The notes beneath the pieces are model-generated. The model did not search any database. It was not told the origin of the DNA and saw only the letters and a list, made by a program, of their open reading frames with translations. This document shows positions 6,778 to 25,283 of a stretch of DNA of 26,075 bases, piece by piece; positions within the stretch are counted from its first letter, which is position 1; each line of letters begins with the position of its first letter. The DNA is from Candidatus Hydrogenedentota bacterium (GTDB taxonomy: Bacteria > Hydrogenedentota > Hydrogenedentia > Hydrogenedentales > CAITNO01), in NCBI GenBank assembly GCA_903902895.1, contig CAIUWO010000484.1, positions 1 to 26,075 on the forward strand, in the 5' to 3' direction. The position numbers were made by a program, and so were the translations under genes.

Positions 6778-6941
6778 TTGAATTCCAATTCGTGTCCCCC
6801 ATTTATTCGCGCTAGCGACACGCCGTTGTTAGGGAAGCCCGGAGGTTGGGTGGCGGGCACAGTGTGCCTTATCAGATTGCCACGGGTCTGCAAAGCCGTA
6901 CTCAAGTCGGGTTGTTGGCGCGGCGGGGAAAGACGCCCGGG

Positions 6942-11421: not shown

Positions 11422-11744
11422 GGCACAGCTCCCAGCATTTCTTCATGGTTCAGTGTTTTCGCCCGTTCCAGCACAGAAACAGCATAACCTTGTCCGGCCC
11501 CATTCACCAAAGAGGAGCTCGGCGCCACCATTCTGCTGAAATTTGCTGCGGACGGTACAATCGTTGTGGGCGGCCCGTCCCTTTTCAGATTTGCTGGAAC
11601 GCAACGATTCAGACCAATCAGACATCAACAGCAGGCTGCCAAGGGAGATTCATTTCTTCTCATTCCTTTTCGGCAGCCCCCCCTGCAATCGGACTCTCGG
11701 GGCAGACACATAGACGTGGAGCTTCGCCGCTTCGAACCACGGGG

Positions 11745-12476
11745 TCACCGAAACACCCCTTTTACCGGCTGCACAAGGTTGTATGGCGGCCAGGGGCCGC
11801 TCAGCAGCATCTTGGCAGACTCGTTGCGGTCCAGCATCTCAAACGCGCTGCGGAATGACTCAATACAAGAGCGCCTCACCAAGAAATGGAGTGACAGTAC
11901 GGGCATGCGGCAGGGGCCGCTGGGAAGCGGGGCATACTCGGACACGTGCCGCACAAACAAGCCCCGAAACACGGCGACCGCCCGTTCGCCAAGGGCGTCC
12001 GCCGTTTTGGCCGAGAGGGTCTGGCGGGCGTAAAGCGCCTTTCGCGAGGCAAGGTATTGTTTTCCGCCCGAGACGTCCGGAGAATCGCAGCAGGGGGGGG
12101 GCGTGGATGCGGTGCCGGGGTCTCCGTCCAGGATCGCCCGGATGCTCATCTCCACACATCCCTCCACGCCATCAAGGGCGCTCGCGAATTCCGCGCCCCG
12201 CTCTCTCAAGAGCTCCGCAACCCGTTCCGCGTTGGGCACCAGACAGCCGTAGCGCATGGGAAGCACGGTGCGCACCGCATGCAGGCTTTCAATGACGGCT
12301 GCGAATGCCTGCAACCGGCCCACGGTGGGCGCAATGTCCTCCTCCGGGATTTGTGAGACTGCGGCAAGAAGCCCCTGCTCGGCCAGGGCGGAAACGCGAC
12401 GTCCGCACCCGTCCAGGGGCAGTTCTGCGGGTGCTTTGGGGTCCTCGCGCATGATGCAATAAACAAGGTGGCTCAT
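11745..12476 (-). CDS. gas vesicle protein, GvpF/GvpL family
   Basis: Starts YCIMRED...; the C-terminus carries the family hallmark LLSGPWPPYNLV. Its ATG overlaps the stop of the upstream paralog (ATGA at 12473-12476). Confidence 0.8.
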   Translation of the reverse strand: MSHLVYCIMREDPKAPAELPLDGCGRRVSALAEQGLLAAVSQIPEEDIAPTVGRLQAFAAVIESLHAVRTVLPMRYGCLVPNAERVAELLRERGAEFASALDGVEGCVEMSIRAILDGDPGTASTPPPCCDSPDVSGGKQYLASRKALYARQTLSAKTADALGERAVAVFRGLFVRHVSEYAPLPSGPCRMPVLSLHFLVRRSCIESFRSAFEMLDRNESAKMLLSGPWPPYNLVQPVKGVFR

Positions 12477-13303
12477 TGCGGCTCATCCTCGTCGGCGCCG
12501 TTGCCCCCCAACCCGGCGCAGGCATGGTAGGGCGGCCACGGTCCAGTCGCCACCGCCGCGATGCCCTGCCCGGCATATCGCGCGTCAATGTCGTCAATCT
12601 GTTCGCGAAAGGCCCCGACGCGGTCGCGGCCCAGCAGGACGGCGACGTGCAGAATCATGTCCGCATTTCTGCCCGACGCCTTGGCCTCCTGCAGCTTCAG
12701 CGGGAACAAGTCGAGGCTCAGTTCCTCCAACTGGGCCTGAACGCTCTTGGCGAGGGCAAAGCCGCACTGCTTGGATAGCCGCAGCGCGTCCCTGTGAAGC
12801 TGCTTCTCCTGGAGATAACGGGTTCCGGGGGACCCGGACGCGCGCGCGCTTTTCGCCGCAAGAACAGGGTCTTGGGCCATGTGCCACGCTGCCGCCCTTT
12901 CTGCGTCCAGAAAGAGCTTGACGGACCATTCCTCCTTGTCGGAAATGTACTCCAGAAACCCGGCAATCTCTTCCGCGTCCGGGGCCACAAAGTCCATGAG
13001 CGCATCGGTGTTGGCAAACACGGCCCCAAACCGAACGGGCAGCACGGGAAACCCTTTCATCAAAGCCTCGGTGACACGCTCATGCGCACAGGCGCGCGGA
13101 ACGAGCCAAGCCGGGTCGGCCAGTCTGGCTTCCGCGTCGTCGCCGGTGAACTCGTCCAGGGAGACCACGCTATACACGGCGGCCACCTCGCCCACGTCAA
13201 GGACACAGACCGCTGCCTGGTCATCCACGCCCACAAGGCCTGCATTTGCCCGGGCACCGGCTGGCGCAAAGCAATACACGTACACACCTTGGTCTGCCAT
13301 CAT
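12473..13303 (-). CDS. gas vesicle protein, GvpL/GvpF family (second paralog)
   Basis: The track ORF is 12473..13486. I place the start at MMADQGVYVYCF (ATG ending 13303). It overlaps the Cdc48-like stop as TAATGATG and is preceded by AGGAAAA. The C-terminus reads ATGPWPPYHAC. The 61 upstream codons are Arg/Gly/Pro-rich read-through. Confidence 0.75.
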   Translation of the reverse strand: MMADQGVYVYCFAPAGARANAGLVGVDDQAAVCVLDVGEVAAVYSVVSLDEFTGDDAEARLADPAWLVPRACAHERVTEALMKGFPVLPVRFGAVFANTDALMDFVAPDAEEIAGFLEYISDKEEWSVKLFLDAERAAAWHMAQDPVLAAKSARASGSPGTRYLQEKQLHRDALRLSKQCGFALAKSVQAQLEELSLDLFPLKLQEAKASGRNADMILHVAVLLGRDRVGAFREQIDDIDARYAGQGIAAVATGPWPPYHACAGLGGNGADEDEPQ

Positions 13304-15474
13304 TATTTTCCTGATTTCAGCGCCCGTGTGGGGCCCGCAGCCCCGGTTCGCCTCGTGCGGATGCCCTCCAGGGCGGCCAGCAGCGCGGCGCGCGTGATTA
13401 GCACCTGCTCCCCCCCGGGGGGTGGGCTGTCCGGTCCGCGTTTCGCCAGCGTCTCCCGGATGGCCCCGATGGCGGCGCTTTTGCATGCGGCCTGAACCTC
13501 TGCCCCTGTGAAGCCGTCCGAGGCGGCCGCCAGTTCCTCGGTGCTCACGTCCTCCGCCACGGGTTTCTTGCGAAGGCCTATGTCGAAGATTTCCCGCCGT
13601 TCTTCCTGGCTGGGCGGCATGATCTCGATCAGAACGTCGAAACGGCCGGGCCGCAGCAGTGCGGGATCGAGCGCATCGAGACGGTTCGTCGCCGCCAGCA
13701 CGACGACACCCGTCAGTTCCTCCACGCCGTCCACCTCGGTCAGAAACTGGCTGACGACGCGCTCCGTGACGTGGGCGTCGGTGCCACCCGAACCGCGCAC
13801 CGGCACCAGGCCGTCAATCTCGTCGAAAAACACAATGCACGGCGCGGCCTGCTTTGCCTTGCGAAAGATTTCGCGCACGGCCTTTTCGGACTCGCCCACG
13901 TATTTCGACAGGAGCGACGGACCTTTAACCGAAATGAAGTTCACCTCGGTCTCATTGGCCAGGGCCTTGGCAACCAGCGTCTTCCCGCAGCCGGGGGCGC
14001 CCGAAAGCAGGATGCCCCTCGGGGGCGTGGTGCCCGCCTGCGTGAAGAGTTCGGGATGCCGCAGCGGCCATTCCACCGCCTCCTCAAGCTGCTGTTTCAC
14101 ATGCCGGAGCCCGCCGACATCGGCCCAGCCCACGTCGGGAACCTCCACGAAGACCTCGCGGATGGCGGACGGCTCCACCTCGCGGAGGGCCTCGGTGAAA
14201 TCATGCATGAAGACGCGCAGCTTCATCAGGGACTCATAGGGAATCCGTGCGGCGGCAAAATCAATCTCCGGCATGATTCCCCGCAGACACACCATGGCCG
14301 CCTCCCGGGCGAGAGCCTCCAGGTCAGCGCCCACGAATCCGTGGGTGATTGCCGCAAGCTGGTCAAGGTCCACGTCCTCGGCGAGGGGCATGCCCCGTGT
14401 GTAGATCTCCAGGATTTCCCGCCGTCCGTTGCGGTCGGGAATGGGCACGCAGATTTCCCTGTCAAAGCGGCCGGGCCGCCGCAGCGCGGGGTCAAGCGCG
14501 TTTGGAATGTTCGTTGCGGCAAGGACAATCACATGCTCGCGTTTGGCCAGTCCGTCCATCAGCGCCAACAGTTGCGCCACCACCCGCTTTTCCACCTCGC
14601 CCAGAACCTGGTCGCGCCGCGGGGCGATGGCGTCGATCTCGTCGATGAAGATGATGCTTGGGGCCTTGCGCGCGGCCTCCTCAAAGATCTTGCGCAGGTG
14701 GGCCTCGCTTTCGCCGTAGAATTTGTGCACGATTTCCGGGCCGTTTACGGAGAAGAACGCCGTCTCGGTCTCGTGGGCCACGGCGCGCGCGATCAGGGTT
14801 TTTCCGCAGCCCGGGGGCCCGTACAGCAGCACCCCCTTCGGCGCGGCCACTCCCAGGCGTTCGAAAACTTCCGGATACCGCAGCGGCAGTTCCACAATCT
14901 CCCGAATGCGGTCAATTTCCCGCCGCAGACCGCCAATGTCCTCGTACGAGATCGCGCTGGACTCTTCGCTCTTCTCGGCGCGCCCCACTTCCATCGTCGT
15001 GGTTGAATTGATAACCACGGGGCCTTTGGGCGCGGTGCTGGTCACCTTGAAATCCACGGAACGCGTTCCGAACAGCGTGGCCCGGATACGGTCACCGACC
15101 ACAACCGGCGTGCCGTCGAGGAGACTGCCGATATAGGTCAGGTCCCGGTCGCGCGGGGCCGTCGTCACCGGCACAATGCACACGCGCTGCGCCGGGCTGG
15201 CCGAAATCTTTCGCACTTCAACCATCTGGTCCAGCGCGGTGCCCGCGTTCTCCCGGGACAGTCCGTCAATTTGAACGCGAGACTGGCCGCGCTGTTCCTT
15301 GTAGGCCGGCATGGCCTTGCATACGGTTTCCCGCTTGCCGACGATGGTCACGATATCGCCAATCTCCAGGCCGAGCGCGGCCATGTCTGCGGGGTCCAAC
15401 CGCGCCAGACCGCGGCCGGCATCTTTGCCCGAAGCTTCGCTGACCTTCAACTTCACCGTCTTGGTCGCTGTCAT
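13303..15474 (-). CDS. Cdc48/VCP-like AAA+ ATPase (N-domain plus D1 and D2 AAA modules)
   Basis: A Cdc48-type N-domain (KLKVSEASGKDAGRGLARLDPADMAALGLEIGDIVTIVGKR) is followed by two Walker A motifs (GVLLYGPPGCGKT and GILLSGAPGCGKT), each with Walker B (IIFIDEID and IVFFDEID) and second-region-of-homology arginines. ATG at 15474 is preceded by AGGAAGGA. Confidence 0.85.
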   Translation of the reverse strand: MTATKTVKLKVSEASGKDAGRGLARLDPADMAALGLEIGDIVTIVGKRETVCKAMPAYKEQRGQSRVQIDGLSRENAGTALDQMVEVRKISASPAQRVCIVPVTTAPRDRDLTYIGSLLDGTPVVVGDRIRATLFGTRSVDFKVTSTAPKGPVVINSTTTMEVGRAEKSEESSAISYEDIGGLRREIDRIREIVELPLRYPEVFERLGVAAPKGVLLYGPPGCGKTLIARAVAHETETAFFSVNGPEIVHKFYGESEAHLRKIFEEAARKAPSIIFIDEIDAIAPRRDQVLGEVEKRVVAQLLALMDGLAKREHVIVLAATNIPNALDPALRRPGRFDREICVPIPDRNGRREILEIYTRGMPLAEDVDLDQLAAITHGFVGADLEALAREAAMVCLRGIMPEIDFAAARIPYESLMKLRVFMHDFTEALREVEPSAIREVFVEVPDVGWADVGGLRHVKQQLEEAVEWPLRHPELFTQAGTTPPRGILLSGAPGCGKTLVAKALANETEVNFISVKGPSLLSKYVGESEKAVREIFRKAKQAAPCIVFFDEIDGLVPVRGSGGTDAHVTERVVSQFLTEVDGVEELTGVVVLAATNRLDALDPALLRPGRFDVLIEIMPPSQEERREIFDIGLRKKPVAEDVSTEELAAASDGFTGAEVQAACKSAAIGAIRETLAKRGPDSPPPGGEQVLITRAALLAALEGIRTRRTGAAGPTRALKSGK

Positions 15475-15492
15475 GATGCGTGGTGTTCCTTC

Positions 15493-16017
15493 CTACGGGG
15501 TCTTGACGAACTTTACCTCTAGCATGCCGTTCCGGCAGTTGTGGCTCATGCTGCTCTCGGGAAATTCGCCCGGCAAAATCACCTCTTTCTGGTACTTCAT
15601 CGCGCCGCGCGCCGCGCTGATGACCAGAATGTCGTGCGCCAACTCGAGGCAAACGTCCTTCTCGTCGACACCGGGCATCTCGGCCACCACCAGGATGTGC
15701 GTCTCTTCATCGAAGATGTCCACGATCGGCTCGCGCACCTCATCGACCACCGGTTTCCCCGTCCCGGCGTCGGGCCGCACGTTTCCGAAGGGTTCCACCT
15801 CGAACTCGTCCTTGCCCAGGCCAACCTTGACGTTGAAGCCATAAATGCCCCGCAGTTTGCCCCCGGGGCCGTGAATCTCGCCGGACTTGCGCAGTTCCTC
15901 CCCTTTCTCAGCGAGCTCACTAAGCTTCTCCATCATGGCGCCCAGACCGCCGAGCAATTTGCCGATCCCGGAAATGCCTTCGCTGTCAGAGTCTTTCTTC
16001 TTTTCATGCTTGGCCAT
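15493..16017 (-). CDS. Hsp20/alpha-crystallin family small heat-shock protein with a ~60-aa low-complexity N-terminal extension
   Basis: The alpha-crystallin domain reads REPIVDIFDEETHILVVAEMPGVDEKDVCLEL...DILVISAARG...YQKEVILPGEF...NGMLEVKF. It lies 12 nt downstream of the activator gene and 18 nt upstream of the Cdc48-like gene. Confidence 0.8.
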   Translation of the reverse strand: MAKHEKKKDSDSEGISGIGKLLGGLGAMMEKLSELAEKGEELRKSGEIHGPGGKLRGIYGFNVKVGLGKDEFEVEPFGNVRPDAGTGKPVVDEVREPIVDIFDEETHILVVAEMPGVDEKDVCLELAHDILVISAARGAMKYQKEVILPGEFPESSMSHNCRNGMLEVKFVKTP

Positions 16018-16029
16018 AGTGATTGCCTT

Positions 16030-17460
16030 TCATGGTTGAGATATCTTATATTCCTTCACCTTGACGTGTATTGTCTTATAGTCCACGCTCAGTATCCGGG
16101 CGGCTTCCGCCTTGTTCCACCGGGCGTGAATCAGAACCTCCGTGATAACCTGCTTCTCGATGTCCGCCACGGTCTTTCTGACCACTTCTTTGAGCGACAC
16201 ATTTCCCGCGATGCAGTCTATTTCTGTGATCTGCTGGACCGTGTTGGAGGCCGCCTTTTCCTTTTTTGGACTAATCGTCATGTTCTCCGGCAGGATGTAT
16301 TTGTCGCACCGCAGTGCCGCCTGCCGAATGACGTTGCGCAGTTCGCGCACGTTGCCCGGCCACTCAAAGGCAAGGAGCAGTTCCACAGCCTCCTGCGAGA
16401 AGCCCAGAATGTCTTTGGTCAATTCCGCCTTGGCGGACATCAGAAAGCGGGTGGCGAGAAATATGATGTCCTCCGGACGGTCACGCAACGGGGGGATGCT
16501 GATGCTGAATTCACTCAGCCGGTAATACAGGTCCTTTCGGAAAAGATTTTTCTGCACCATGGCGCCCAAATCCTCGTTGGCCGCGCCGACCACGCGGATA
16601 TCCACGTCAATGGGCCGGATCCCGCCGACACGCCAAATCTTCCTCTCTTCCAGCGCGCGCAGCAGTTTGGCCTGGAGCGCGAGGGTAAGGTTTGATATCT
16701 CGTCAAGAAAGAGCGTGCCTCCCGAGGCCATTTCCATCTTGCCGGGCTGTGACTGATGCGCGCCGGTATAGGACCCCTTCTCATGCCCAAACAGCTCGCT
16801 CTCTATGAGCGTCGGGGTTATTGAGCCGCAGTCCACAGGCACGAAAGGCCCCTTCGCGCGGTTGCTCAGGCGGTGGAGGCCCTCCACAATCAATTCCTTG
16901 CCGGTGCCCGTTTCACCGGTGATGAGCACGGTGAAGTCCGTGGGGGCCACAAGTTCAACGCTGGCTATCAGGGCGGCGATCTGCCTTCCCGTGCCCATCC
17001 GTTCGGCGAGAGACTCATGGCCCTCAATGCCGTTGGCATGCGAACCCAAGTAGGGGTAGCGCTTCCTGAGCGCCTTTTGCACGGCAACGATGAACCTTTG
17101 AAGGTCAAACGGCTTTAGCAGATAATCATCGGCGCCGCTCTTTATGGCCTGCACAGCCATGTTGATGTCGCCGAAGCCTGTAATCAGGATCACGGGCATG
17201 CCCGGATAGATTTTCTGTATCTGCTTGAAAAGCTCCATCCCGCCCATTCCAGGCATTTTCAAGTCCGTCACCACCACGTTGACCTTCTCGTTCCGAAGCA
17301 CTTCCAGGGCGCCCTCCCCCGTTGTTGCCTCGAGCAGGCCGCACCCCAGATTTTCGATGGCCCGGCATAACAACGCGCGCACATCATCCTCGTCATCCGT
17401 GACGAGCACCCGACCCCATTCCTTGTCCTCTGTCTTCAAAGCATCGAACTCCTTCGCCAT
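16030..17460 (-). CDS. sigma54-dependent Fis-family response regulator (NtrC-type enhancer-binding protein)
   Basis: Receiver domain (VLVTDDEDD...VVVTDLKMPGMGGMEL...KPF). Sigma54-interaction AAA+ domain (VLITGETGTGKELIVEGLH, and ESELFGHEKGSYTGA as a GAFTGA-type loop). C-terminal Fis HTH (NKAEAARILSVDYKTIHVKVKEY). Confidence 0.9.
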   Translation of the reverse strand: MAKEFDALKTEDKEWGRVLVTDDEDDVRALLCRAIENLGCGLLEATTGEGALEVLRNEKVNVVVTDLKMPGMGGMELFKQIQKIYPGMPVILITGFGDINMAVQAIKSGADDYLLKPFDLQRFIVAVQKALRKRYPYLGSHANGIEGHESLAERMGTGRQIAALIASVELVAPTDFTVLITGETGTGKELIVEGLHRLSNRAKGPFVPVDCGSITPTLIESELFGHEKGSYTGAHQSQPGKMEMASGGTLFLDEISNLTLALQAKLLRALEERKIWRVGGIRPIDVDIRVVGAANEDLGAMVQKNLFRKDLYYRLSEFSISIPPLRDRPEDIIFLATRFLMSAKAELTKDILGFSQEAVELLLAFEWPGNVRELRNVIRQAALRCDKYILPENMTISPKKEKAASNTVQQITEIDCIAGNVSLKEVVRKTVADIEKQVITEVLIHARWNKAEAARILSVDYKTIHVKVKEYKISQP

Positions 17461-17946: not shown

Positions 17947-18282
17947 TCACAAGGCGTGGGCCGCCGGCGTGCTCTTTGCGGCGCCCGACGTCTCGAGTTC
18001 CGCAATGCGCTGTTTCAGTTGTTCGATCTCGTCTTCCCGCTGCGTGGCCGCGGCCTGCGAGTTGAAGTAGGGATTGTTTATCCACCAATCCATGCCCATT
18101 TCACGGGCCTTGTCCACGGAGGCGATCATGAGGCGAATCTGAATGGTGAGCAGTTCAATGTCGACAAGTTTTATCTTGATGTCGCCCGCAATGATCACCC
18201 CCTTGTCCAGTACGCGTTCGAGCACATCGGCGAGCGTCGCGCTTTGGGTGGAGTGCTGCATTGACCGTTGTTGGATAGCCAT
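17947..18282 (-). CDS. gas vesicle protein, GvpA/GvpJ family (GvpJ-like, with a C-terminal coiled-coil tail)
   Basis: Core reads LADVLERVLDKGVIIAGDIKIKLVDIELLTIQIRLMIASVDKAREMG. Start taken at MAIQQRS (ATG ending 18282), preceded by AAAGGA; the track ORF begins 5 codons earlier at a TTG. Confidence 0.75.
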   Translation of the reverse strand: MAIQQRSMQHSTQSATLADVLERVLDKGVIIAGDIKIKLVDIELLTIQIRLMIASVDKAREMGMDWWINNPYFNSQAAATQREDEIEQLKQRIAELETSGAAKSTPAAHAL

Positions 18283-18293
18283 AACGATTCCTT

Positions 18294-18641
18294 TCAAAGA
18301 AGCTTTCCTAGAGGCCCTAGGTCAAGGTTGAGGTCTTCGTCTTCGAGGCCGAACTCAATTTTCAGCCGGTCGATCTCTTCGGCGAGCCGCATGAATGTGG
18401 TCCCCAGCCGTTCCACTTCCTCATCGTTCAGCGACCCGCCCTCCATGCGCCGGAGTGCCTGGCGTTCGAGCAGTTGCCGGACAAGTTCGACAACCGTCAG
18501 AACCAGTTGTCCCAGCCCGTTTTTTACATTTTCCGGGTCAAGCTTAATCCGGGGCCGGCAGGGCTCTGTGGCGGGGGTCATGAGTTGGGCAAAATCGCCC
18601 ATGCACCGGGAATCCGTTTTGACGCTCTGGGTGGTGTTCAT
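18294..18641 (-). CDS. gvpK: gas vesicle protein GvpK
   Basis: GvpK signature: GLGQLVLTVVELVRQLLERQALRRMEGGSLNDEEVERLG...FGLEDEDLNLDLGPLGKLL. Its ATG overlaps the stop of the upstream gvpA-family gene (ATGA at 18638-18641). Confidence 0.8.
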   Translation of the reverse strand: MNTTQSVKTDSRCMGDFAQLMTPATEPCRPRIKLDPENVKNGLGQLVLTVVELVRQLLERQALRRMEGGSLNDEEVERLGTTFMRLAEEIDRLKIEFGLEDEDLNLDLGPLGKLL

Positions 18642-18871
18642 GGCTTGCTCCCGGCCGGACAGGGCCTGTTGGCCGCGTTCTGGGCGCTGATCTCGCGCGC
18701 CGTTTCCACGGAGGACAGCATGACCTGAAGGCTCAGGTACACAAGGTCGATGTCGGCCACCGAAATCACCACCTCTCCCACTATGACAACCCCGGCGTTG
18801 AGGACGCGGTCAAGGGCTTCGCACAAAGAGACATGCTCTTCGGCTTCCATGTCCCGGGCTGACTTGCTCAT
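18638..18871 (-). CDS. gas vesicle protein, GvpA/J/M (PF00741) family, minor paralog
   Basis: Core reads LCEALDRVLNAGVVIVGEVVISVADIDLVYLSLQVMLSSVETAREI. Its ATG overlaps the ArsA-like stop (ATGA at 18868-18871). Confidence 0.75.
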   Translation of the reverse strand: MSKSARDMEAEEHVSLCEALDRVLNAGVVIVGEVVISVADIDLVYLSLQVMLSSVETAREISAQNAANRPCPAGSKP

Positions 18872-20955
18872 GCGGGCCCCCCTCCGGGTTCGGCAGCGCC
18901 GGGACCGCCGCCGCCGCCGCCGTTGTCCTTCGCCGCGGGGTCGGGCGGGTGCGCCGCACGCCGCTTCCGGACCGCGCGCACAATCGGCGGTGCCGGTGCC
19001 TGCGGCCCCTCAAAGAGAAGCAGGCCAAGGGCTTTGAGGTCGTCCCAGTCGGACGGTTCGGCGAAGCGGTATACCACCGATTGCGCGGTCTGGGCGAAGG
19101 CCCGCCTGTATCGGCTCTGCACGCGGGATTCGGCACGGCCGCGGGCGCTGCAGAAAAGACACTCCGCCGGCGGCGTGGCGAGGTTCAAAAAGAGCGTGGG
19201 AACACGTATCCCGGCATTGCGGCACGCGGCCATCAGGTCCGTGGTTTCCTCAAAGGCCATATCCGTCAGCACGCTGACGGCATAGAGGCTGGTCCTTTCC
19301 GGGTCCACCAGCAGCGCGCGCAGGGCTTTGAGTTGCTTGGACATCTCCACCATGAGCTGCATCATGTTGGGCAGCCGGAACACATTTCTGTACTTGATAA
19401 GGATGTTGAAAAACACCCTGAGCCAGTCCTGGACCAGTCCGGGAAGTTCGAGGAGGCGTATGAGGTGCCCGGTGGGGGCCGTGTCGAGGACAATAGTGCC
19501 GTATTTCCCTGACTGGAGCAGTTCCACCACGCGCGTCAACGCCATCATCTCATCCAAGCCCGGAGGGGACATGTCCATGATGCTTTCCATGACCTCTCGG
19601 TCAAAACTTAGGTCGATGGTCACACCTTTGCCCGTAAGAGAACCGAAAAACGCGGCGACTTCATCGCTGTACTGCTGCTTGAGCGCCTCGAACTCCACCT
19701 TCTCATCCACCTCCAACGCCGACAGCCCCGGGCACAATACGGTCTCCCGCGAGCCAACCACCACCCCGAGTCGGTCAGAAAGGGAGTGCGCCGGGTCAGT
19801 GGAGAACAGGAGGATATTCTTGTCCGGCGCTTGCCGGTTCAAACGAAACGCGGTGGCCGTGGCCAGGGTGGTTTTCCCAACCCCCCCTTTTCCCGCAAAA
19901 AGCAACAGTGATGCGCCGATCGGGGGGAGGGTGGCCGCATGGTCAACGCATGGTTTCGTGGCGGTGTCGGCGGCGCGGGGCTGCGGGCCGACCGACAAGG
20001 GCTTAACGGTTTCCCAGAGGGCCCGGAGTTTCTCGCTCCCCTGCACCCTGCCGGCCTGCAGCGGAATTTCCCAGAGGGCGTGCTTGGCGAAGGTCTGCGA
20101 GGCGATGGAGTACTGTTCATATTGGCGGCCGCGCAGTTCGGAACAGAACGGGCACTGTATGGAGACAGGAACGGTCTGGTTGATCAGGATGTCCATGACG
20201 GGAACTCTCATGCTTTGCAGGGCCTCAAGCAGCCGTCCAGTCTCCTGAACGCTCAGTGGCTCGGCAATCATTACCGGCACGAAGCGGCACCTGACGGCGT
20301 CCTGGAGCAGGGCGGTGATGCAGTCGATGGAGGCCATGGTTTGCTCAATGAACATGTCGGCCTGGCTCTTCGTGTAGAATCCGCGGTAGAGTCTGTACAT
20401 GTAGCGGTTCTGGGCCAGCATGGCGTCGAGGGACTGGTTCCATTTTCGCAGCATTTGGGGCAGTTCGAGGAACCGCAGGGCGTGCCCCGTGGGCGCCGTG
20501 TCGACCACAATGCAGGCATAGGCGCCGGAGTCCACGAGCGCGGCGATCTCGATAAAGGCCATTATCTCATCGAGACCCGGCATGGACAGTTCCAGGAGTT
20601 GCGTGATGTCATAGTCGTCGAGAACCGTTCCGTGCAGGGCTATCTCCCGGAGGTGTCCGGCGTGGGCCGCCTTGAACCTGGCCAGACTGTCCTGGGTGTT
20701 GACCTCCAGCACCTCAAGGTTCGGCAGGGGGGCCGAACCCGCGAAGCAGTCTTCGAGTGAGTGTGCCGGGTCGATGGAGACCACAAGAAAGCGGCGGTCC
20801 GGGGACTGGCCGGCCAGCCGCAGTGCGGCTGCGGCGGCACAGGTTGTTTTTCCCACGCCACCTTTCCCGCCAAACAGAATCAGCCCGAGCCCGGCTTCCC
20901 GGAAAAACGAGGGGGCGTCGGTCTGTGCGGGTTGGTTGGCGTTCGGGGCGTTCAA
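18868..20955 (-). CDS. fused tandem ArsA/Get3(TRC40)-like P-loop ATPase (two complete halves in one polypeptide)
   Basis: Half 1 has GGKGGVGKTT, VDTAPTGHALRFLELP and CPFC. Half 2 has AGKGGVGKTT, LDTAPTGHLIRLLELP and CLFC. The only available start is TTG at 20955, preceded by AGGGTG and overlapping the gvpG stop (AATTGA). Confidence 0.85.
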   Translation of the reverse strand: MNAPNANQPAQTDAPSFFREAGLGLILFGGKGGVGKTTCAAAAALRLAGQSPDRRFLVVSIDPAHSLEDCFAGSAPLPNLEVLEVNTQDSLARFKAAHAGHLREIALHGTVLDDYDITQLLELSMPGLDEIMAFIEIAALVDSGAYACIVVDTAPTGHALRFLELPQMLRKWNQSLDAMLAQNRYMYRLYRGFYTKSQADMFIEQTMASIDCITALLQDAVRCRFVPVMIAEPLSVQETGRLLEALQSMRVPVMDILINQTVPVSIQCPFCSELRGRQYEQYSIASQTFAKHALWEIPLQAGRVQGSEKLRALWETVKPLSVGPQPRAADTATKPCVDHAATLPPIGASLLLFAGKGGVGKTTLATATAFRLNRQAPDKNILLFSTDPAHSLSDRLGVVVGSRETVLCPGLSALEVDEKVEFEALKQQYSDEVAAFFGSLTGKGVTIDLSFDREVMESIMDMSPPGLDEMMALTRVVELLQSGKYGTIVLDTAPTGHLIRLLELPGLVQDWLRVFFNILIKYRNVFRLPNMMQLMVEMSKQLKALRALLVDPERTSLYAVSVLTDMAFEETTDLMAACRNAGIRVPTLFLNLATPPAECLFCSARGRAESRVQSRYRRAFAQTAQSVVYRFAEPSDWDDLKALGLLLFEGPQAPAPPIVRAVRKRRAAHPPDPAAKDNGGGGGGPGAAEPGGGPA

Positions 20956-21215
20956 TTGGCACCCTGGCTCTCGTCATCGTCGTCCGTTGACGCAATCTCG
21001 GCCTTGTCGAGCAGTTGCAGGAGCTGCTCCTCCCTGGCATCAAACTCTTCCTCCGTTATCCTCCCCGTTTCAAGCATCATGTACAATTCGGCAAGTTCAA
21101 CGCGGATCGATTCGGCGGCATTTGCGACCTCCTGCTGGGCGGCGTTCTGGATTTCGCGAAAAATGAACATGAGACTCCTCGCCGGAAAAAGCAGGATGTC
21201 ATCGATGATAAACAC
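20952..21215 (-). CDS. gvpG: gas vesicle protein GvpG
   Basis: MFIIDDILLFPARSLMFIFREIQ...ESIRVELAELYMMLETGRITEEEFDAREEQLLQLL matches the GvpG pattern. I prefer the internal GVG start (GTG ending 21215, preceded by GGGGAG) over the track ATG at 21287, which would overlap gvpF by 43 nt and add 24 non-conserved residues. The start is uncertain. Confidence 0.6.
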   Translation of the reverse strand: MFIIDDILLFPARSLMFIFREIQNAAQQEVANAAESIRVELAELYMMLETGRITEEEFDAREEQLLQLLDKAEIASTDDDDESQGAN

Positions 21216-21244
21216 GGCCTGATACTCCCCGGTTGGCCTGCGGG

Positions 21245-22006
21245 CTACATGGACAGTTGCATTTCCACAAAGTTGTACGGCGGCCATGGACCGCTGAAAT
21301 CGAAGGAGAAGGTGTCGTCGAAAAGCTTGGCGGCGTCCATGACGGCGTTTTCGAAGTCCTTCTGTCGGTCGCTCGCCACCAGGCAGGCAAGGCTCAGAAC
21401 ATCACGGTCCTCCCGCGGGTCATTTTCCAGAATCTCAACGCAGCACGGGAGGAGAAACCGTTTCACCGTCTCGGTGTGCTCATCGCGGTCCGTGTTCAGC
21501 GCCTTCTCGAACAAGCGCCCCAACTCGAGCTTGTCACCCTGGGAGGGTTCCCGCCCGCCGCTGAACATGCGGTCCCGAAGCGAGGCGATATTCGGATGTC
21601 TGCTGACAAAGTACTCGAAAAAGTTCGGCACATTCCAGCAGACCCGGAGGCCCATTTCCACGTTTCCCGCAACGCGCTCCAACTGTTCGAGCAACGCGTC
21701 TTGGTTTGCGGACAGCAGCTTGCACACGTCCTTGGTGTTCTTGGCGATATTGCCGAAGGACATGGGCAGCAGGCCGGATTTGCCCATCAAGTGCATCAGG
21801 ACGGCCTGATGGGCGGCCAAATGGCGCCGTTGCGGACGCAGTTTTTCATCGGGAACACCGCTTACCGCGGCAGCCAAAGCGCCCTCAATAACATAGTGCA
21901 CACATCCGCCGTCGATGCCGGAGAGTTCGGCTTCCTCGACCACCTGGTCTGCGGCGACCACTCCGTAAAGGTATGTGCCGCTCGGTGCTGCGATTAGTTG
22001 TTCCAT
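21245..22006 (-). CDS. gvpF: gas vesicle protein GvpF (GvpF/L family), positioned between gvpN and gvpG
   Basis: Begins MEQLIAAPSGTYLYGVV and ends FSGPWPPYNFVEMQLSM (GPWPPYNFV hallmark). ATG at 22006. Confidence 0.8.
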   Translation of the reverse strand: MEQLIAAPSGTYLYGVVAADQVVEEAELSGIDGGCVHYVIEGALAAAVSGVPDEKLRPQRRHLAAHQAVLMHLMGKSGLLPMSFGNIAKNTKDVCKLLSANQDALLEQLERVAGNVEMGLRVCWNVPNFFEYFVSRHPNIASLRDRMFSGGREPSQGDKLELGRLFEKALNTDRDEHTETVKRFLLPCCVEILENDPREDRDVLSLACLVASDRQKDFENAVMDAAKLFDDTFSFDFSGPWPPYNFVEMQLSM

Positions 22007-22103: not shown

Positions 22104-22304
22104 CTAGCCTTCTTGGTCGCCGTTTTCAGCGGCGCCCCGCGCCCCGCCCATGGCCCTGGCAAACCGGACTGATTTGATTTGCCCGTCTTCCGTCTTTATT
22201 TCCAGCAGTGTGCTGCAGACAAAACACCGGATCATCCCCTCATAATCGCTGTAAACGTCATCGAGGTCCACGTTGTGTCCGCAGACAAGGCAATTGACTT
22301 TCAT
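22104..22304 (-). CDS. small zinc-ribbon-like protein (two CxxC pairs), 66 aa, unknown function
   Basis: Start taken at internal Met 74 of track ORF 22104..22523 (ATG ending 22304), preceded by AGGAAAGG. Translation: MKVNCLVCGHNVDLDDVYSDYEGMIRCFVCSTLLEIKTEDGQIKSVRFARAMGG..., with C5/C8 and C29/C32. The upstream extension of the track ORF is Arg/Ala/Gly/Pro-rich and looks non-coding. Confidence 0.45.
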   Translation of the reverse strand: MKVNCLVCGHNVDLDDVYSDYEGMIRCFVCSTLLEIKTEDGQIKSVRFARAMGGARGAAENGDQEG

Positions 22305-22600
22305 CAGTGAAGGCCTTTCCTGGTTGCGCCGCTCCGTTCCCGCGGACGGGAGGGTGCGGGTTTGGATGACAATGGCACGGTCAGTCCCGCCCGCCCCCTG
22401 TGTGCGAGGTGCTGCGCGATGAGCCACAGGCGGCGCATCAACCGGCCGGCCAGCGCCGCCTGTCGCAAAACAATGGACACGCTGGCCACATGCGCCATGG
22501 AGACGCCGGTGGAGCTGCGGCACGCCCGGAACCCCTTTATGGTTCCGCCCGTGCGTATTTGGTCGGCAGTCTTGACCATCAACATAAGCGGGGTCCCTTC

Positions 22601-22936
22601 TTAGTATTTTATGCCGAAGCCGGACCCGCTCGCCTTGGGGTGCGGCGCCTCCGGCCTCCTGCGGGGGCCCGCCGGACTGCTGGCGGGCAGATTCTCCCCC
22701 ATCTGGGCCAGGGAGGCGAGCAGGGCCTCCTTTTCGGCGTCGATGGCCTTGAACCGCTCGTCAATGATCCGCACGCGCCTCATGGCCGCCTCCCTTTCCG
22801 AGCCGCGCCGCGCGCGCTCCATTTCAAGGCAGGCGATCTTGATGTAGGCCTTGTGGGGCGGCACTTCCAGGTGCTTGTTCTTCGACAGCGTTTGGACGCA
22901 CTGAAGTCCGCGTGTTGTTCTGTCCGGTATGGCCAT
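22601..22936 (-). CDS. hypothetical basic/coiled-coil protein at the gvpV position of Serratia/cyanobacterial-type clusters
   Basis: ATG at 22936 is preceded by GAGGAGA and lies 11 nt after the gvpN stop. Sequence: ...PPHKAYIKIACLEMERARRGSEREAAMRRVRIIDERFKAIDAEKEALLASLAQ..., with a Pro/Arg-rich tail. The GvpV assignment rests on position only. Confidence 0.5.
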   Translation of the reverse strand: MAIPDRTTRGLQCVQTLSKNKHLEVPPHKAYIKIACLEMERARRGSEREAAMRRVRIIDERFKAIDAEKEALLASLAQMGENLPASSPAGPRRRPEAPHPKASGSGFGIKY

Positions 22937-22947: not shown

Positions 22948-24006
22948 TCAGTCGCCGTCGGCCGGGTTCGAGTCATGCTGATGCGCGCGCGCGGGCGCGG
23001 GCTGGCTGCCCAGCCGGACGCACACCCGCTTGAGGATGTCCTCGATGTCGCCGCCCATCACCCGGTTTCCGTCGTGCATGACTTTGGCGGTGTCCGTGTT
23101 CAGGATGTCCCGGCAGATCCGCGGGAAGACGGGGTCGAGCCAGCCGGCGTGCTCGCCGGGCCGCATCAGAAGGCGCCCCACGGCGATGGCCGAGCGAATC
23201 GTGGGCCGGTGCTTGTTTGCGCCGCCCTCGCGCAGCTCGGTCACCAGGTCGACGATGATCTCGGCGTCCTCGCGGCTCGTGCCCGATTTGGCCATGACGA
23301 TCGCAGTCTCGGTGTCCCGGTCGTAGTGGCCAAGGTTGATGGTGATCAGGCGGTCCGCAAGGGCGTCCTGGGTCTTGTGCGTGCCCGCGTACTCTTCCGG
23401 ATTGGAGGTGAAGATGGCGCGAAAGCAGGGATGAACCGCCAGATAGCCCTCGCCCGAGGTGCGCAGCTTCGGCAGGTTCAGGATCCGCTCCGACAGGATG
23501 GTCAGGAACGCGTTGTTGGCCTCGGGCCGCGAGCGGTTGAACTCGTCGTAGATGAGGGTGTCGCCGCGCTGGCAGGCGGTGGTCAGCCGGTTATCCATCC
23601 AGAGGCTTCTCATTTCCTCCTCTGTCTTCATCACGGAGTGGATATAATTGTCGACCACCTTGTGCTTGCGGTAGCCGGTGTCGCGCCCAATCAGGTCGGA
23701 ACTGGCAAACTCGTCATCGCCGTGAATGAGCGTGACGGACCGGCCGAGCAGGGCGGCCGCGTGGAAGGCCAGCGTGGTTTTCCCGGTGCCCGCAGGGCCG
23801 GCGAAATGCACCGGATAACCCGCGTACAGATACGCCATGGCCCGCTCGGTTAGTTCCTGCACATAGTCGGTTGTGACAAACTCCTTGCTTGCCTCAAGCT
23901 GAACGGTGTCGCCGGAACTTCTGATCCGCTCGACCCCCAGGGGTGCCACGGTCGCGTTGTTGTTGCTCATGCTTACCTTCAATCCTTTCTGCATCGGGCC
24001 AGTCAT
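22948..24006 (-). CDS. gvpN: gas vesicle protein GvpN (CbbQ/NirQ/NorQ/GvpN-family AAA+ ATPase)
   Basis: ERAMAYLYAGYPVHFAGPAGTGKTTLAFHAAALLGRSVTLIHG (Walker A), LIYDEFNRSRPEANNAFLTIL (Walker B) and VHPCFRAIFTSNPEEYAGTH match the GvpN family. An alternative start is at Met 13 (ATG ending ~23970), which has a better GAAGG Shine-Dalgarno. Confidence 0.9.
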   Translation of the reverse strand: MTGPMQKGLKVSMSNNNATVAPLGVERIRSSGDTVQLEASKEFVTTDYVQELTERAMAYLYAGYPVHFAGPAGTGKTTLAFHAAALLGRSVTLIHGDDEFASSDLIGRDTGYRKHKVVDNYIHSVMKTEEEMRSLWMDNRLTTACQRGDTLIYDEFNRSRPEANNAFLTILSERILNLPKLRTSGEGYLAVHPCFRAIFTSNPEEYAGTHKTQDALADRLITINLGHYDRDTETAIVMAKSGTSREDAEIIVDLVTELREGGANKHRPTIRSAIAVGRLLMRPGEHAGWLDPVFPRICRDILNTDTAKVMHDGNRVMGGDIEDILKRVCVRLGSQPAPARAHQHDSNPADGD

Positions 24007-24081: not shown

Positions 24082-24885
24082 TTACTTGCGTCCGCGCCGC
24101 GCCTCGGGCTTGGCGGGCTTGCCGGCCGCTTTGGCCTTGGTCTTTACGGGCGCGGTGTCGGGGGCCTTCGCCTCCGGTCTGGGCGCGCTGACGGCGGGGG
24201 CAGACTGCCTGGTCTCTGCTTTGACGGGCGCGGCGGTGCCAGCCCATGCCTGACGGACCCCGGCGAGGTCGGCGGAGACGGCCTCGCGCAGGGCGTTTAC
24301 GTGCGCGCGCAGTCCGTCGAGAATCTCGGTGCGCGTCGCAAAGTCCTGCGAGGCTTCCTCAATGCGCCGGGCCTCCTCGTCTCGCCGGGAACTGTCGCAT
24401 TCCGCGAAAGTTTCACGCTGCGCCTCGGCCATCTCGTCATGGGCCGCTTGAAACACCACGCGCAGGACATCGACCTCGGCCTTGAGCTCCTCAACCCGCC
24501 CGCAGACCTTGGCTACGAACGCGGCCCGGGCCTGTTGGAGCCTGTCGGCTTCGGCAAGCCTTTCGGCCTCGTTCGCGGCGGACTCATCGCGCACGAGCGC
24601 GGCCCGGTCGGCATGGCCTGTGCGCAATTCGGTCCGAAGTTCCTCGCTCGCCTGGGCGCGCGCCGCATTCCACGTCGCAAGCAATGAGGCGACGGCCTCT
24701 TTCGAACTCTGGGCGAATGCACGCTGCTCTTCCATCAATTCGCGGCGTCCGTTCCGCAATGCGCCAATTTCGTCGCTGAGCCTCGTCATGTCATCGGTAA
24801 GTGTTCCCACAGCTGTTCTCCTCTGGTTATAGACGTTAAAGTGTTCGCCGGTTGACGGACGAAGAGTTTCGCCCGCCAACGTCAT
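24082..24885 (-). CDS. alpha-helical repeat protein at the gvpC position (candidate vesicle-surface protein) with a Lys/Ala/Pro-rich basic tail
   Basis: Start taken at the ATG ending 24885 (the track begins at a TTG two codons earlier). There is an internal duplication: ELMEEQRAFAQSSKEAVASL versus EMAEAQRETFAECDSSRRDE. The C-terminus reads APVKAETRQSAPAVSAPRPEAKAPDTAPVKTKAKAAGKPAKPEARRGRK. It starts 29 nt after the gvpA stop. Confidence 0.6.
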   Translation of the reverse strand: MTLAGETLRPSTGEHFNVYNQRRTAVGTLTDDMTRLSDEIGALRNGRRELMEEQRAFAQSSKEAVASLLATWNAARAQASEELRTELRTGHADRAALVRDESAANEAERLAEADRLQQARAAFVAKVCGRVEELKAEVDVLRVVFQAAHDEMAEAQRETFAECDSSRRDEEARRIEEASQDFATRTEILDGLRAHVNALREAVSADLAGVRQAWAGTAAPVKAETRQSAPAVSAPRPEAKAPDTAPVKTKAKAAGKPAKPEARRGRK

Positions 24886-24914
24886 CTCCAACTCTCAGTT
24901 GCCCTCGCCGGGTC

Positions 24915-25133
24915 TCACGCGGGGGCGGCTGCGGTCGCGGTCAGCCCGATTGCCTCGGCATATTTGAGATAGGTTTCGACAGACGCAATCACCACGCGGG
25001 CTTCCACCGACAACAGTTCTATTCCAACGAGCGAAACCTTGACCCAGGCGTCGATCACAATGCCTTTGTCCAAGATGCGGTCCACGACTTCCGCCAAACT
25101 GGAACTGTCTGTTGATTTCTGTATTTTTGCCAT
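24915..25133 (-). CDS. gvpA: major gas vesicle structural protein GvpA
   Basis: [65 protein letters not shown] is near-identical to canonical GvpA. Start taken at the ATG ending 25133, preceded by AAAGGAG (the track begins at a GTG two codons upstream). Confidence 0.9.
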
Positions 25134-25264
25134 ATCCACTCAACTCCTTTCCGTTTGGAAACCCTCTTTCATGCCGGACTGACGCCTCACGGGCGTCAGC
25201 ACTGCGTGCCGGTGTCCTGACGGCTGGCCCGAAGTGGCCCGGCTCTTGGCGCAACGACTTGGAT

Positions 25265-25283
25265 AAAGCAATACGCATGCCAA
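25265..25283 (-). promoter_or_regulatory. sigma54 (-24/-12) promoter of the gvpA operon
   Basis: The minus strand reads TTGGCATGCGTATTGCTTT, i.e. TGGCAT-N5-TTGCT, with GG and GC 12 nt apart as in the consensus. It is ~120 nt upstream of the gvpA ATG. A sigma54 activator is encoded in the cluster. Confidence 0.55.

Follow-up and report, generated by a model that had tools for sequence, protein, structure and literature searches.

Two-domain homologues of the ArsA ATPase were reported in gas-vesicle (gvp) operons of Geobacter, cyanobacteria, Chlorobi, Bacteroidetes and Acidobacteria by Castillo & Saier (2010), who found the ArsA cysteines missing from the gvp homologues and proposed that these proteins energise gas-vesicle biogenesis (PMC2963123). 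Members of their Clusters 4 and 6 (e.g. Gur2 of Geobacter uraniireducens Rf4 and Nsp2 of Nostoc PCC 7120) have two ArsA-type domains in ~600-700 aa; the study is silent on CxxC motifs and on Get3-like helical inserts (PMC2963123). A 2017 phylogenetic-profile study of cyanobacteria grouped ArsA with eight Gvp proteins (PMC5464585), and in Nodularia the ArsA homologue nsp15480 directly follows the gvp genes nsp15380-15470 (PMC3610870). Papers on Chloroploca and Nodularia name ArsA as well as gas vesicles without commenting on a connection. Separately, Bodensohn et al. (2019) reported that some bacterial Get3 homologues are tandem proteins carrying TRC40 inserts and CxxC motifs; they called these unique and of unknown function (PMC6593721). 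Their Group 8 (Myxococcales and some Proteobacteria) has two Get3 domains with a CxxC in each, insert-length helices and no alpha-crystallin domain; that paper gives no genomic context and no mention of gas vesicles. The gvp link was therefore published in 2010 and the fused zinc-motif architecture in 2019, and neither is new. Our literature search found no paper joining "gas vesicle" with "Get3", and no report of client binding, ATPase activity, zinc content or a phenotype for any family member. The Serratia, Bacillus and haloarchaeal gvp clusters, as described, have no such gene and make vesicles anyway (PMC4982088, PMC11445434).

The locus described here lies in a 26,075-nucleotide stretch of DNA that was analysed as a whole (the window); all features given below are on the minus strand. 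The putative operon begins with gvpA (24915..25139, likely ATG at 25133), upstream of which lies a sigma-54-type -24/-12 promoter element (TGGCAT-N5-TTGCT, 25267..25282), the single match in the window against 0.10 expected by chance. Downstream are gvpN, encoding an AAA+ protein (22948..24006; TIGR02640, 322.7 bits, cut-off 266.8), gvpF/L (21245..22006; PF06386, E 2.5e-63) and gvpG (20952..21287; PF05120), whose true start is probably internal to the open reading frame because the Pfam match begins only at residue 32. The ATPase gene (18868..20955) comes next, followed by a 77-aa GvpA-family gene that is GvpS/M-like (18638..18871; PF00741), gvpK (18294..18641; PF05121, E 1.3e-35) and, last in the putative operon, a gvpJ-like GvpA-family gene (17947..18297). 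The ATPase gene thus sits inside a gvpA-to-gvpJ string behind a sigma-54 promoter element. A second gvp block (11745..17460), also found in related loci, encodes an NtrC-type sigma-54 activator (16030-17460), Hsp20/GvpH (15493-16017), a Cdc48-like double AAA protein (13303-15474) and two GvpF/L proteins (12473-13486 and 11745-12476). The alpha-crystallin domain of GvpH scores 21.5 bits against the Pfam family ArsA_HSP20, just under the cut-off of 22.5, and a weak match of this kind is also present in related locus L085. An Rfam scan of the window gave no match, and sigma-70 promoter-like and terminator-like sites within the operon were at chance level.

The ATPase gene is a 695-aa open reading frame with a TTG start and a TGA stop, encoding a tandem ATPase of the Get3/ArsA fold. 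No alternative ATG, GTG or TTG lies between the TTG and the first P-loop, and an AGGGTG stands 5-10 nt 5' of the start. The start (20955-20953) overlaps the gvpG stop TGA (20954-20952) by 4 nt as TTGA, and the stop (18870-18868) overlaps the ATG (18871-18869) of the 77-aa gene by 4 nt as ATGA; from these overlaps we infer that the ATPase is translationally coupled to both neighbours. The N half carries a deviant Walker A motif, GKGGVGKTT, with signature Lys31 (20842..20868, residues 30-38), a switch II DTAPTGH (20482..20502, residues 152-158) and a CxxC pair, CPFC (20143..20154, residues 268-271), at the Get3 zinc-ligand position by alignment. The C half repeats the series with GKGGVGKTT (19867..19893, residues 355-363), DTAPTGH (19465..19485, residues 491-497) and CLFC (19150..19161, residues 599-602), and the switch I motif DPAH is present in both halves. 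The P-loops, switch motifs and both CxxC pairs do not vary across 30 aligned homologues with 48-73% identity, so they are not chance occurrences, and each half by its motifs keeps a complete predicted ATP site (P-loop, DPAH, DTAPTGH). The Gly/Pro/Ala/Arg-rich C-terminal tail (18871..19008, ~residues 650-695) is non-conserved and predicted to be disordered; residues 652-695 have pLDDT < 50 in the AF2 model and are unaligned in homologues. The two-half architecture, the Walker A, DTAPTGH and CxxC motifs and both overlaps had been described in an earlier sequence-only reading, and every one of these details proved correct.

That reading had also assigned the protein to the Get3/ArsA group, which profile searches bear out. 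Pfam finds two ArsA_ATPase stretches (E 1.3e-108), and the protein passes the NCBIfam model TIGR00345 (GET3_arsA_TRC40), scoring 354.8 bits where 135 is required. Its scores fall short for the ArsA equivalog model TIGR04291 (166.1 bits against 650), the haloarchaeal ArsA model (182.8 against 800) and, in the comparison with Get3d, NF050088 (80.6 against 325); besides ArsA/Get3 there are weak matches to ParA/MinD/CbiA. In the alignments, CPFC and CLFC share their columns with the CxxC of archaeal Get3, including M. jannaschii Get3 and M. thermautotrophicus TRC40. At the N-half CxxC, 15-16 of 18 gvp-linked proteins and 6-7 of 7 archaeal Get3 proteins have Cys, and three gvp-linked proteins (L006, L007 and L016) are missing both motifs. 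The equivalents of ArsA Cys113/172/422 are Gly, Gln/Lys and Gly (Gly127/Gly466 and Gln182/Lys521), and across the comparison set all 17 true ArsA halves have Cys in these metalloid columns, where each of the 18 gvp-linked proteins has Gly or Lys/Arg/Gln. The earlier view that the CxxC pairs are of the Get3 zinc type, and not arsenite-binding cysteines, is thus upheld by the alignment. In a tree of halves, the N and C halves of ArsA group together in a clade apart from the gvp-linked halves, and the ArsA duplication appears independent of that in the gvp-linked family.

The helical region behind switch II differs in length between these groups. The spacing between switch II and the conserved Asn is 107 residues in the N half and 100 in the C half, compared with 93 in ArsA and 107-116 in archaeal Get3, so that the N half has the archaeal Get3 length, the C half is intermediate and neither is ArsA-short. 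Structure prediction places long helices at 156-191/198-218 and 495-521/529-549. Hydrophobic residues make up 51-53% of this region, which contains 8 and 6 Met in the two halves; its Met richness is not conserved through the family. The residues that are conserved on the putative groove helices include the charged or polar R184, D200, K521, Y522 and S539, which makes the putative groove unlike a generic transmembrane-helix groove.

An AF2 model of the protein (pLDDT 80.4, pTM 0.77) matches closed ArsA along the whole chain with a TM of 0.76, and each half matches closed Get3/TRC40 with a TM of ~0.8. Among proteins of known structure, its closest relatives are C. reinhardtii ArsA1, M. jannaschii Get3 and M. 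thermautotrophicus TRC40. Archaeal Get3/TRC40 (3UG6/3UG7, 3ZQ6) is the best single-domain match per half in both sequence and structure and resembles our protein in CxxC position, switch II-to-Asn spacing and intact ATP site, but these proteins are single-domain homodimers that bind tail-anchored proteins and have no gvp linkage. Here a single chain bears both halves, instead of a Get3-style homodimer of single-domain subunits. The top sequence match among solved structures is C. reinhardtii ArsA1 (5ZME/5ZMF), a fused chloroplast Get3 and tandem pseudo-dimer that works in tail-anchored protein targeting (PMC11170914) and is a precedent for a client-handling fused Get3. It differs in being eukaryotic and organellar and in having no CxxC at the aligned position, and it fits the AF2 model more poorly (rmsd ~16 A over the whole chain). 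The ArsA efflux ATPase (E. coli 1F48; L. ferriphilum 9NBW) shares the tandem fold and, in its closed state, is the best full-length structural match, but has the metalloid cysteine triad, a short helical region and an ars operon location. Get3d/NosAFP-type proteins join a Get3 fold to a C-terminal alpha-crystallin domain, whereas here the small heat-shock protein (GvpH) is encoded by a separate gene of the same cluster; Get3d is also single-domain and lacks the CxxC and A-loop, and its ATP site is frequently degenerate (PMC10248533). Compared with its published description, Group 8 has the same architecture as our protein (tandem, two CxxC, no alpha-crystallin domain), while the gvp-linked family is taxonomically far wider (PMC6593721). 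Clusters 4 and 6 likewise agree with our protein in lying within gvp operons (gvpF/G/J/K/N, hsp20), lacking the cysteine triad and having no ars neighbours. Taken on sequence and model, the evidence supports a fused pseudo-dimer with Get3-type CxxC pairs and not the ArsA metalloid triad.

The gvp linkage extends well beyond this locus. Among sampled genomes, 14 of the 16 best-scoring tandem homologues lie in gvp clusters, and one of the remaining two is on a 3-kb contig whose flanks are unreadable. Of four metagenomic homologues, all four are gvp-linked. When metagenomic clusters were instead chosen via GvpN, in a scan that retained the 80 closest GvpN relatives (61-70% identity), 28 of 34 carried the tandem ATPase, a proportion that describes this cluster type and not all gas-vesicle clusters, since the sample consists of closest relatives. 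The usual order is gvpF-gvpG-X-gvpS-gvpK, with X the tandem ATPase: of 52 related tandem genes, 38 have gvpG directly upstream, in many cases overlapping it by 4 nt, and 27 have a GvpS/M-like GvpA-family gene directly downstream. A two-domain protein encoded within a gvp operon (gvpF/G/J/K/N, hsp20) that has no ars genes recurs in L001-L017, L036, L081-L085 and 28 metagenomic loci. The gvp placement spans >10 phylum-level lineages, and the gvp-linked family includes Gemmatimonadota, Acidobacteriota, Chloroflexota, Rokubacteria, Planctomycetota and Poribacteria. An alignment-based contig scan with the P-loop as pattern returned a mix of ArsA and Get3 among the matches listed, which serve as negative controls and not as a census; gvp genes stood beside none of the ~33 true ArsA loci among those matches. 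A contig search of genomes with the single 695-aa protein as query found no relatives. One type of gas-vesicle cluster has the tandem ATPase as a conserved component, as a survey of gvp loci had been expected to reveal if the linkage was real, and the converse pattern of homologues confined to ars operons with the arsenite-binding cysteines was not what we found. The accompanying statement that no ArsA/Get3-type ATPase belongs to any described gvp set is contradicted by the 2010 and 2017 studies (PMC2963123, PMC5464585).

There is variation around this pattern. Five otherwise collinear gvp clusters, in three separate places of the GvpN tree, do without the tandem ATPase, which marks it as accessory and not indispensable. 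Related tandem proteins are found outside gvp clusters in Lyngbya (L009) and in M. xanthus (Mxa1; PMC2963123). The gvp cluster of Chlorobiaceae has a single-domain homologue between Hsp20 and Cdc48. The slot of the tandem ATPase after gvpG is one that we take to be the gvpW position in Serratia. The sequence-only reading had placed the gene in the gvpW slot of Serratia/cyanobacterial-type loci; the position after gvpG stands, but in cyanobacteria the ArsA homologue follows gvpW and does not replace it (PMC3610870). Cyanobacterial members thus differ from our protein in coming after gvpW, not gvpG, and also in lacking the CxxC (PMC6593721; Lyngbya L009).

GvpF and GvpG are proposed chaperones of the hydrophobic GvpA, and GvpJ and GvpS are poorly soluble (PMC11445434); Get3 is holdase-active (PMC6593721, PMC3613179). 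A candidate chaperone role for GvpA/GvpJ-type proteins is plausible. We give an even chance to the reading that the protein is a tandem pseudo-dimeric Get3/TRC40-type ATPase dedicated to gas vesicles, acting as a holdase and delivery accessory for GvpA-family proteins. One Zn2+ would link the two halves as a pivot, and ATP binding would shut the two helical subdomains into a groove covering the hydrophobic stretch, alpha1 and beta-hairpin, of GvpA-family proteins (GvpA, GvpJ, GvpS), possibly handed over by GvpF/GvpG. Hydrolysis would then free these clients at the nascent or growing vesicle, so that the ATPase would hold and deliver proteins in the manner of Get3 at a protein shell free of lipid. 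Natural collinear clusters without the gene weaken the chaperone role as an essential function; the protein may serve efficiency or quality control in an accessory capacity, possibly alongside Hsp20 (GvpH) and the Cdc48-like ATPase, and not as a core assembly factor.

Source annotations read 'arsenite-transporting ATPase', and the tandem architecture and overall fold do match ArsA. An arsenite/antimonite pump ATPase is nevertheless already refuted, with next to no probability left: the Cys113/172/422 equivalents are replaced, TIGR04291 is failed by a wide score (166 against 650 bits), the ArsA halves form a separate clade, and arsB, acr3, arsD and arsR were not found near the gene. No ars family was present among the window ORFs scanned with Pfam, as the sequence-only reading had held, and the unscanned ORFs long enough for ArsB/Acr3 are just those opposite known genes. 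We therefore rejected the pump subunit. A housekeeping Get3 for tail-anchored membrane proteins that came to lie in a gvp cluster by accident would account for the Get3-like features, and Bodensohn et al. saw a tendency towards more predicted tail-anchored proteins in species that possess tandem homologues (PMC6593721). This is very improbable given an operon position kept, with overlapping reading frames, in >10 phylum-level lineages, co-occurrence with gvp genes in cyanobacterial profiles (PMC5464585) and the reported absence of Get1/2/4-binding residues from the tandem bacterial group (PMC6593721), and such a hitch-hiking gene was likewise rejected.

Other ATPases of the SIMIBI/ParA-MinD class position or space their cargo. 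The protein belongs to this P-loop class and has weak ParA/MinD/CbiA matches, and it could be a nucleotide-dependent assembly switch or scaffold with no hydrophobic clients, for example gating GvpF/GvpG/GvpK at nucleation or positioning and spacing vesicles. The putative tight coupling to gvpG and the conserved gvpF-gvpG-X synteny agree with such a role, the conserved polar residues of the helical subdomains suggest a specific partner over a generic hydrophobic client, and Castillo & Saier proposed merely the energising of a biogenic step (PMC2963123). We consider it unlikely, though, as the fold and helical subdomains are those of Get3/ArsA and not ParA/MinD, the subdomains come close to those of client-binding Get3 in length and hydrophobicity, and the protein has no membrane-targeting or DNA-binding feature. 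A further proposal concerns the CxxC pairs, which are strictly conserved in the 30 homologues although fusion by itself keeps the halves together; according to Bodensohn et al., a tandem protein should not require CxxC to dimerise (PMC6593721), and the motif is implicated in the oxidation-regulated chaperone activity of Get3 (PMC10248533). An oxidative CxxC/Zn switch, as proposed for yeast Get3, might turn the protein into an ATP-independent holdase that ties assembly to oxygen or redox state. The full conservation of both ATP sites argues instead for a working ATPase cycle, and some gvp-linked members have no CxxC, leaving this redox-regulated form improbable.

Returning to the holdase and delivery reading, a bolder version, which we hold tentatively and at slightly less than even, is that a Get3-type targeting ATPase was recruited to a membrane-free organelle, where a zinc-hinged pseudo-dimer would take the hydrophobic face of GvpA-family proteins to the growing protein monolayer between gas and water, together with an sHsp and a Cdc48-like unfoldase that the cluster encodes. 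For keeping the extremely hydrophobic, aggregation-prone GvpA-family proteins soluble and bringing them to the shell as it grows, GvpF and GvpG are the current chaperone candidates (PMC11445434). Encoded after gvpF-gvpG and before gvpS-gvpK-gvpJ in many phyla, the tandem ATPase is, by virtue of this position, a concrete and testable candidate for that step. Heterologous gas vesicles used as acoustic reporters could benefit, as GvpA toxicity and poor assembly restrict the usable clusters, and if the reading is true the ATPase would be a missing proteostasis module for gas-vesicle engineering. For the Get3 field, the locus points to the physiological setting in which tandem-CxxC bacterial homologues, left without a known function in 2019, probably work, and, if true, the protein would be the first Get3-family member with clients that are neither tail-anchored membrane proteins nor metalloids.

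The minus-strand ORF at 18868–20955 encodes a 695-aa ATPase with a conserved tandem Get3 fold and apparently complete catalytic machinery, inside a structural gvp operon. Each half carries a GKGGVGKTT P-loop (residues 30–38 and 355–363), a switch I (DPAHS at 62–66, DPAH at 387–390), a DTAPTGH switch II (152–158 and 491–497) and a CxxC pair (CPFC at 268–271, CLFC at 599–602), and the codons of the P-loops and CxxC pairs were checked by hand against the DNA. Pfam reports two ArsA_ATPase stretches (E 1.3e-108), and the protein scores 354.8 bits against the NCBIfam TRC40/GET3/ArsA subfamily model (cut-off 135). The ORF call, codons and Pfam confirm the two-half architecture described by a sequence-only reading, and these HMM searches are among the checks it had proposed; every sequence detail it reported proved correct. 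Its claim that the gene overlaps both neighbors also holds: the TTG start overlaps the gvpG stop in TTGA, and the TGA stop overlaps the first codon of a 77-aa GvpA-family (GvpS/M-like) gene in ATGA. AGGGTG lies 5–10 nt 5' of the TTG, and the DNA contains no alternative ATG, GTG or TTG between this start and the first P-loop. From the overlaps, we infer that the ATPase is translationally coupled to gvpG and to the gvpS-like gene.

We aligned the ArsA/Get3 domains from 85 fetched loci, including 17 true ArsA halves, 18 gvp-linked proteins and 7 archaeal Get3. The columns of the ArsA metalloid cysteines hold Cys in 17/17 true ArsA halves and Gly or Lys/Arg/Gln in 18/18 gvp-linked proteins; the ATPase has G127/G466 and Q182/K521 there. 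The two CxxC columns hold Cys in 15–16/18 gvp-linked proteins, for the N as well as the C halves, in 6–7/7 archaeal Get3, and never in ArsA. In a phmmer search of PDB sequences, CPFC aligned directly with the CxxC pairs that M. jannaschii Get3 and M. thermautotrophicus TRC40 carry. The pairs are of Get3 type and are not the ArsA cysteines, as had been proposed. An arsenite pump was rejected and has next to no probability, given Gly, Gln and Lys in the metalloid columns and a failing score against the ArsA equivalog model (166 bits vs a cut-off of 650). A Pfam scan of window ORFs gave no match to any ars family among those covered, in agreement with the earlier statement that ars genes are absent from the window.

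Switch II and the conserved Asn are 107 residues apart in the N half and 100 apart in the C half, compared with 93 in ArsA and 107–116 in archaeal Get3, which fits an N-half helical subdomain of TRC40-insert length and a C half of intermediate length. The region after switch II is 51–53% hydrophobic and Met-rich, a richness that is not conserved across the family. An AlphaFold2 model built from 30 homologs (pLDDT 80.4, pTM 0.77) predicts disorder only at the first 11 residues and in a Gly/Pro-rich tail (652–695). By Foldseek, the whole model is closest to closed ArsA (TM 0.76 on target), and the separate halves match closed Get3/TRC40 (TM about 0.8 each). In a rough neighbor-joining tree of halves, calculated without support values, the N and C halves of ArsA form their own clade, and the gvp-linked N and C halves group together with a cyanobacterial tandem protein and Chlorobiaceae single-domain proteins, near archaeal Get3. 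The gvp-linked fusion therefore appears to be independent of the ArsA fusion.

The minus-strand order in the window is a sigma-54 element, gvpA, a 269-aa coiled-coil protein, gvpN, a 111-aa protein, a small zinc-ribbon-like ORF, gvpF, gvpG, the ATPase, a gvpS-like gene, gvpK and gvpJ. Beyond gvpJ, a further block encodes an NtrC-type activator, Hsp20/GvpH, a Cdc48-like double AAA ATPase, two gvpF/L proteins and a PAS histidine kinase; the region 8914–17460 (-) recurs in most related metagenomic clusters. The -24/-12 element (TGGCAT-N5-TTGCT, 25267–25282 (-)) is canonical, lies ~130 nt 5' of gvpA, and is the sole match within the window (0.10 expected by chance). It fits the NtrC-type activator predicted at 16030–17460, and also the GvrA/sigma-54 control known from Serratia. 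No convincing internal promoter or terminator was found in the gvpA-to-gvpJ stretch.

Several other genes of the locus deserve mention. The zinc-ribbon-like ORF (~70 aa, CxxC...CxxC, 22104–22316 (-)), between the 111-aa ORF and gvpF, matches no Pfam family, but tblastn gives matches in the corresponding place in >20 related gvp clusters; we count it as a conserved, undescribed gene of gvp clusters. The 111-aa protein (22601–22936 (-)), immediately 3' of gvpN, is likewise conserved without a family match, with counterparts of 103–111 aa in comparison loci L001 and L081–L085; by its place in the gene order, it is a putative counterpart of the GvpV of Serratia and cyanobacteria. The coiled-coil protein (24082–24891 (-)) occupies the gvpC position after gvpA, and a partial paralog (25710–26069 (-), 48% identity over 93 aa) lies upstream of the gvpA promoter and extends towards the window edge. 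The gvpG ORF (20952–21287 (-)) shares 43 nt with the gvpF end, and Pfam matches it only from residue 32 onward; its true start is probably internal, near the N-terminal hydrophobic helix '...AVFIIDDILLFP'. Beyond the gvp cluster are a PASTA-repeat/FGE-sulfatase-domain protein (18–1784 (+)) and a 1223-aa protein with a weakly YhdP-like C-terminus (1865–5536 (-)); ORFs at 5600–8500 gave no family matches.

The proposed survey for co-occurrence with gvp genes showed that the linkage is general within this cluster type. Among the matches listed from 80 genome loci, which the common P-loop motif had retrieved, 14 of the top-scoring tandem homologs lie in gvp clusters (from Gemmatimonas, Anaerolineales, Dehalococcoidales, Blastocatellia, Thermoanaerobaculia, Terriglobia, Vicinamibacterales, Rokubacteria, Labilithrix, Longimicrobiales and unclassified Deltaproteobacteria). 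The two exceptions are a 3-kb contig with unreadable flanks (L005) and a Lyngbya locus (L009). Among the same listed matches, no gvp genes were found at about 33 true tandem ArsA loci or, Chlorobiaceae excepted, beside the remaining single-domain loci. All four metagenomic homologs (49–52% identity) are gvp-linked, the genes running gvpN, about 105 aa, gvpF, gvpG, ATPase, (about 105–119 aa), gvpS, gvpK, gvpJ. When clusters with enough flank were chosen independently via GvpN, the ATPase lay exactly between gvpG and gvpS/gvpK in 28/34. Of 52 tandem genes, 38 are preceded by gvpG (at least 10 of them overlapping it by 4 nt) and 27 are followed by a GvpS-type gene; both CxxC are present in 38, most others being interrupted by contig ends. 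Linkage is widespread, and the opposite pattern, with homologs always in ars operons or unlinked to gvp genes elsewhere, did not appear.

The gene is accessory to the gvp cluster. Five otherwise collinear metagenomic clusters (L134, L141, L150, L156, L162) pass directly from gvpG to gvpS without the ATPase. In a GvpN tree they occupy three separate places, and at each one they are surrounded by clusters that have the ATPase, a pattern suggesting that the gene was lost repeatedly. The descriptions of the Serratia, Bacillus and haloarchaeal clusters in PMC4982088 and PMC11445434 name no such gene. In Chlorobiaceae gvp clusters (n=2), a single-domain ArsA/Get3 homolog lies between Hsp20 and the Cdc48-like ATPase; these proteins (L013 4313–5278, L014 9971–10909) have about 312–321 aa and no CxxC. 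The Lyngbya tandem homolog (L009 8050–12004, 703 aa) also lacks CxxC. It is more than 10 kb from any gvp gene on the stretch covered and divergently adjoins a Cdc48-like double AAA ATPase, with fraC also adjacent. M. xanthus Mxa1 is a related tandem protein outside gvp clusters (PMC2963123). Some clusters have a family of helical TPR-like ORFs of about 105–119 aa straight after the ATPase (L083 10019–10378, L084 10087–10398, L085 9953–10276, L012 8551–8889); the window lacks them, and its ATPase gene overlaps gvpS. In L081, a 209-aa gene immediately 3' of the ATPase (11940–12569) fuses a GvpA-family (GvpS-like) domain to GvpK.

The sequence-only reading is partly supported: it was right that the protein is a fused pseudo-dimer with Get3-type CxxC pairs inside a gvp operon, but its statement that described gvp gene sets include no ArsA/Get3-type ATPase is contradicted by the literature. 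Castillo and Saier (2010) reported two-domain ArsA homologs inside gvp operons of Geobacter uraniireducens, Anabaena/Nostoc, Pelodictyon, Polaribacter and an acidobacterium, without the ArsA cysteines, and proposed that they energize gas-vesicle biogenesis (PMC2963123). A 2017 phylogenetic-profile study of cyanobacteria grouped ArsA with eight Gvp proteins (PMC5464585), and the Nodularia 'ArsA' nsp15480, directly after gvp genes nsp15380–15470, was catalogued under arsenic resistance (PMC3610870). Bodensohn et al (2019) described tandem bacterial Get3 homologs, whose two domains each contain a TRC40 insert and which have CxxC outside cyanobacteria, as unique in all domains of life and of unknown function; gas vesicles are unmentioned (PMC6593721). 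Both the gvp link and the tandem-CxxC Get3 architecture are therefore published, separately, and the ATPase is a further, metagenomic example of proteins described bioinformatically in 2010, 2017 and 2019. In the literature searched, we found no paper containing both 'gas vesicle' and 'Get3' and no experimental work on the gvp-linked ATPase, and joining the two lines with a Get3-style chaperone hypothesis appears to be unwritten there.

We consider it very likely that the ATPase is of Get3 type and serves gas vesicles as a dedicated accessory; a hitch-hiking housekeeping Get3 is very improbable. There is about an even chance that it holds or delivers GvpA-family proteins. In such a mechanism, one Zn2+ would act as a pivot between the halves, and ATP binding would close the two helical subdomains into a groove shielding the hydrophobic alpha1/beta-hairpin part of GvpA-family clients. 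These may be received from GvpF/GvpG, which were proposed as GvpA chaperones in a systematic interaction study (PMC11445434). Hydrolysis would then release the client at a nascent or growing vesicle. A redox- or zinc-regulated variant of this holdase is improbable.

As the main rival, a nucleotide switch or scaffold that acts on GvpF/G/K but holds no client is possible though doubtful. Conserved residues of the putative groove helices (W172, R184, D200; W511, K521, Y522, S539; 30-homolog alignment) differ between halves and include polar ones, which suggests a specific partner and argues against a generic transmembrane-helix groove.

The alpha-crystallin domain of Hsp20/GvpH (15493–16017 (-)) scores 21.5 bits against Pfam ArsA_HSP20, just below the cut-off of 22.5 and almost equal to its HSP20 score, with a similar weak match in L085; ArsA_HSP20 is an HSP20-like domain fused to some Get3/ArsA homologs. 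Together with the Chlorobiaceae Hsp20-ATPase-Cdc48 order and the Lyngbya pairing with a Cdc48-like protein, this near-cut-off match hints that the ATPase belongs to a proteostasis module.

The gene itself would not surprise a gas-vesicle or Get3 specialist. What is useful is an explicit, testable bridge between the gas-vesicle and Get3 literatures, and the natural presence/absence variants of the ATPase gene in collinear clusters.
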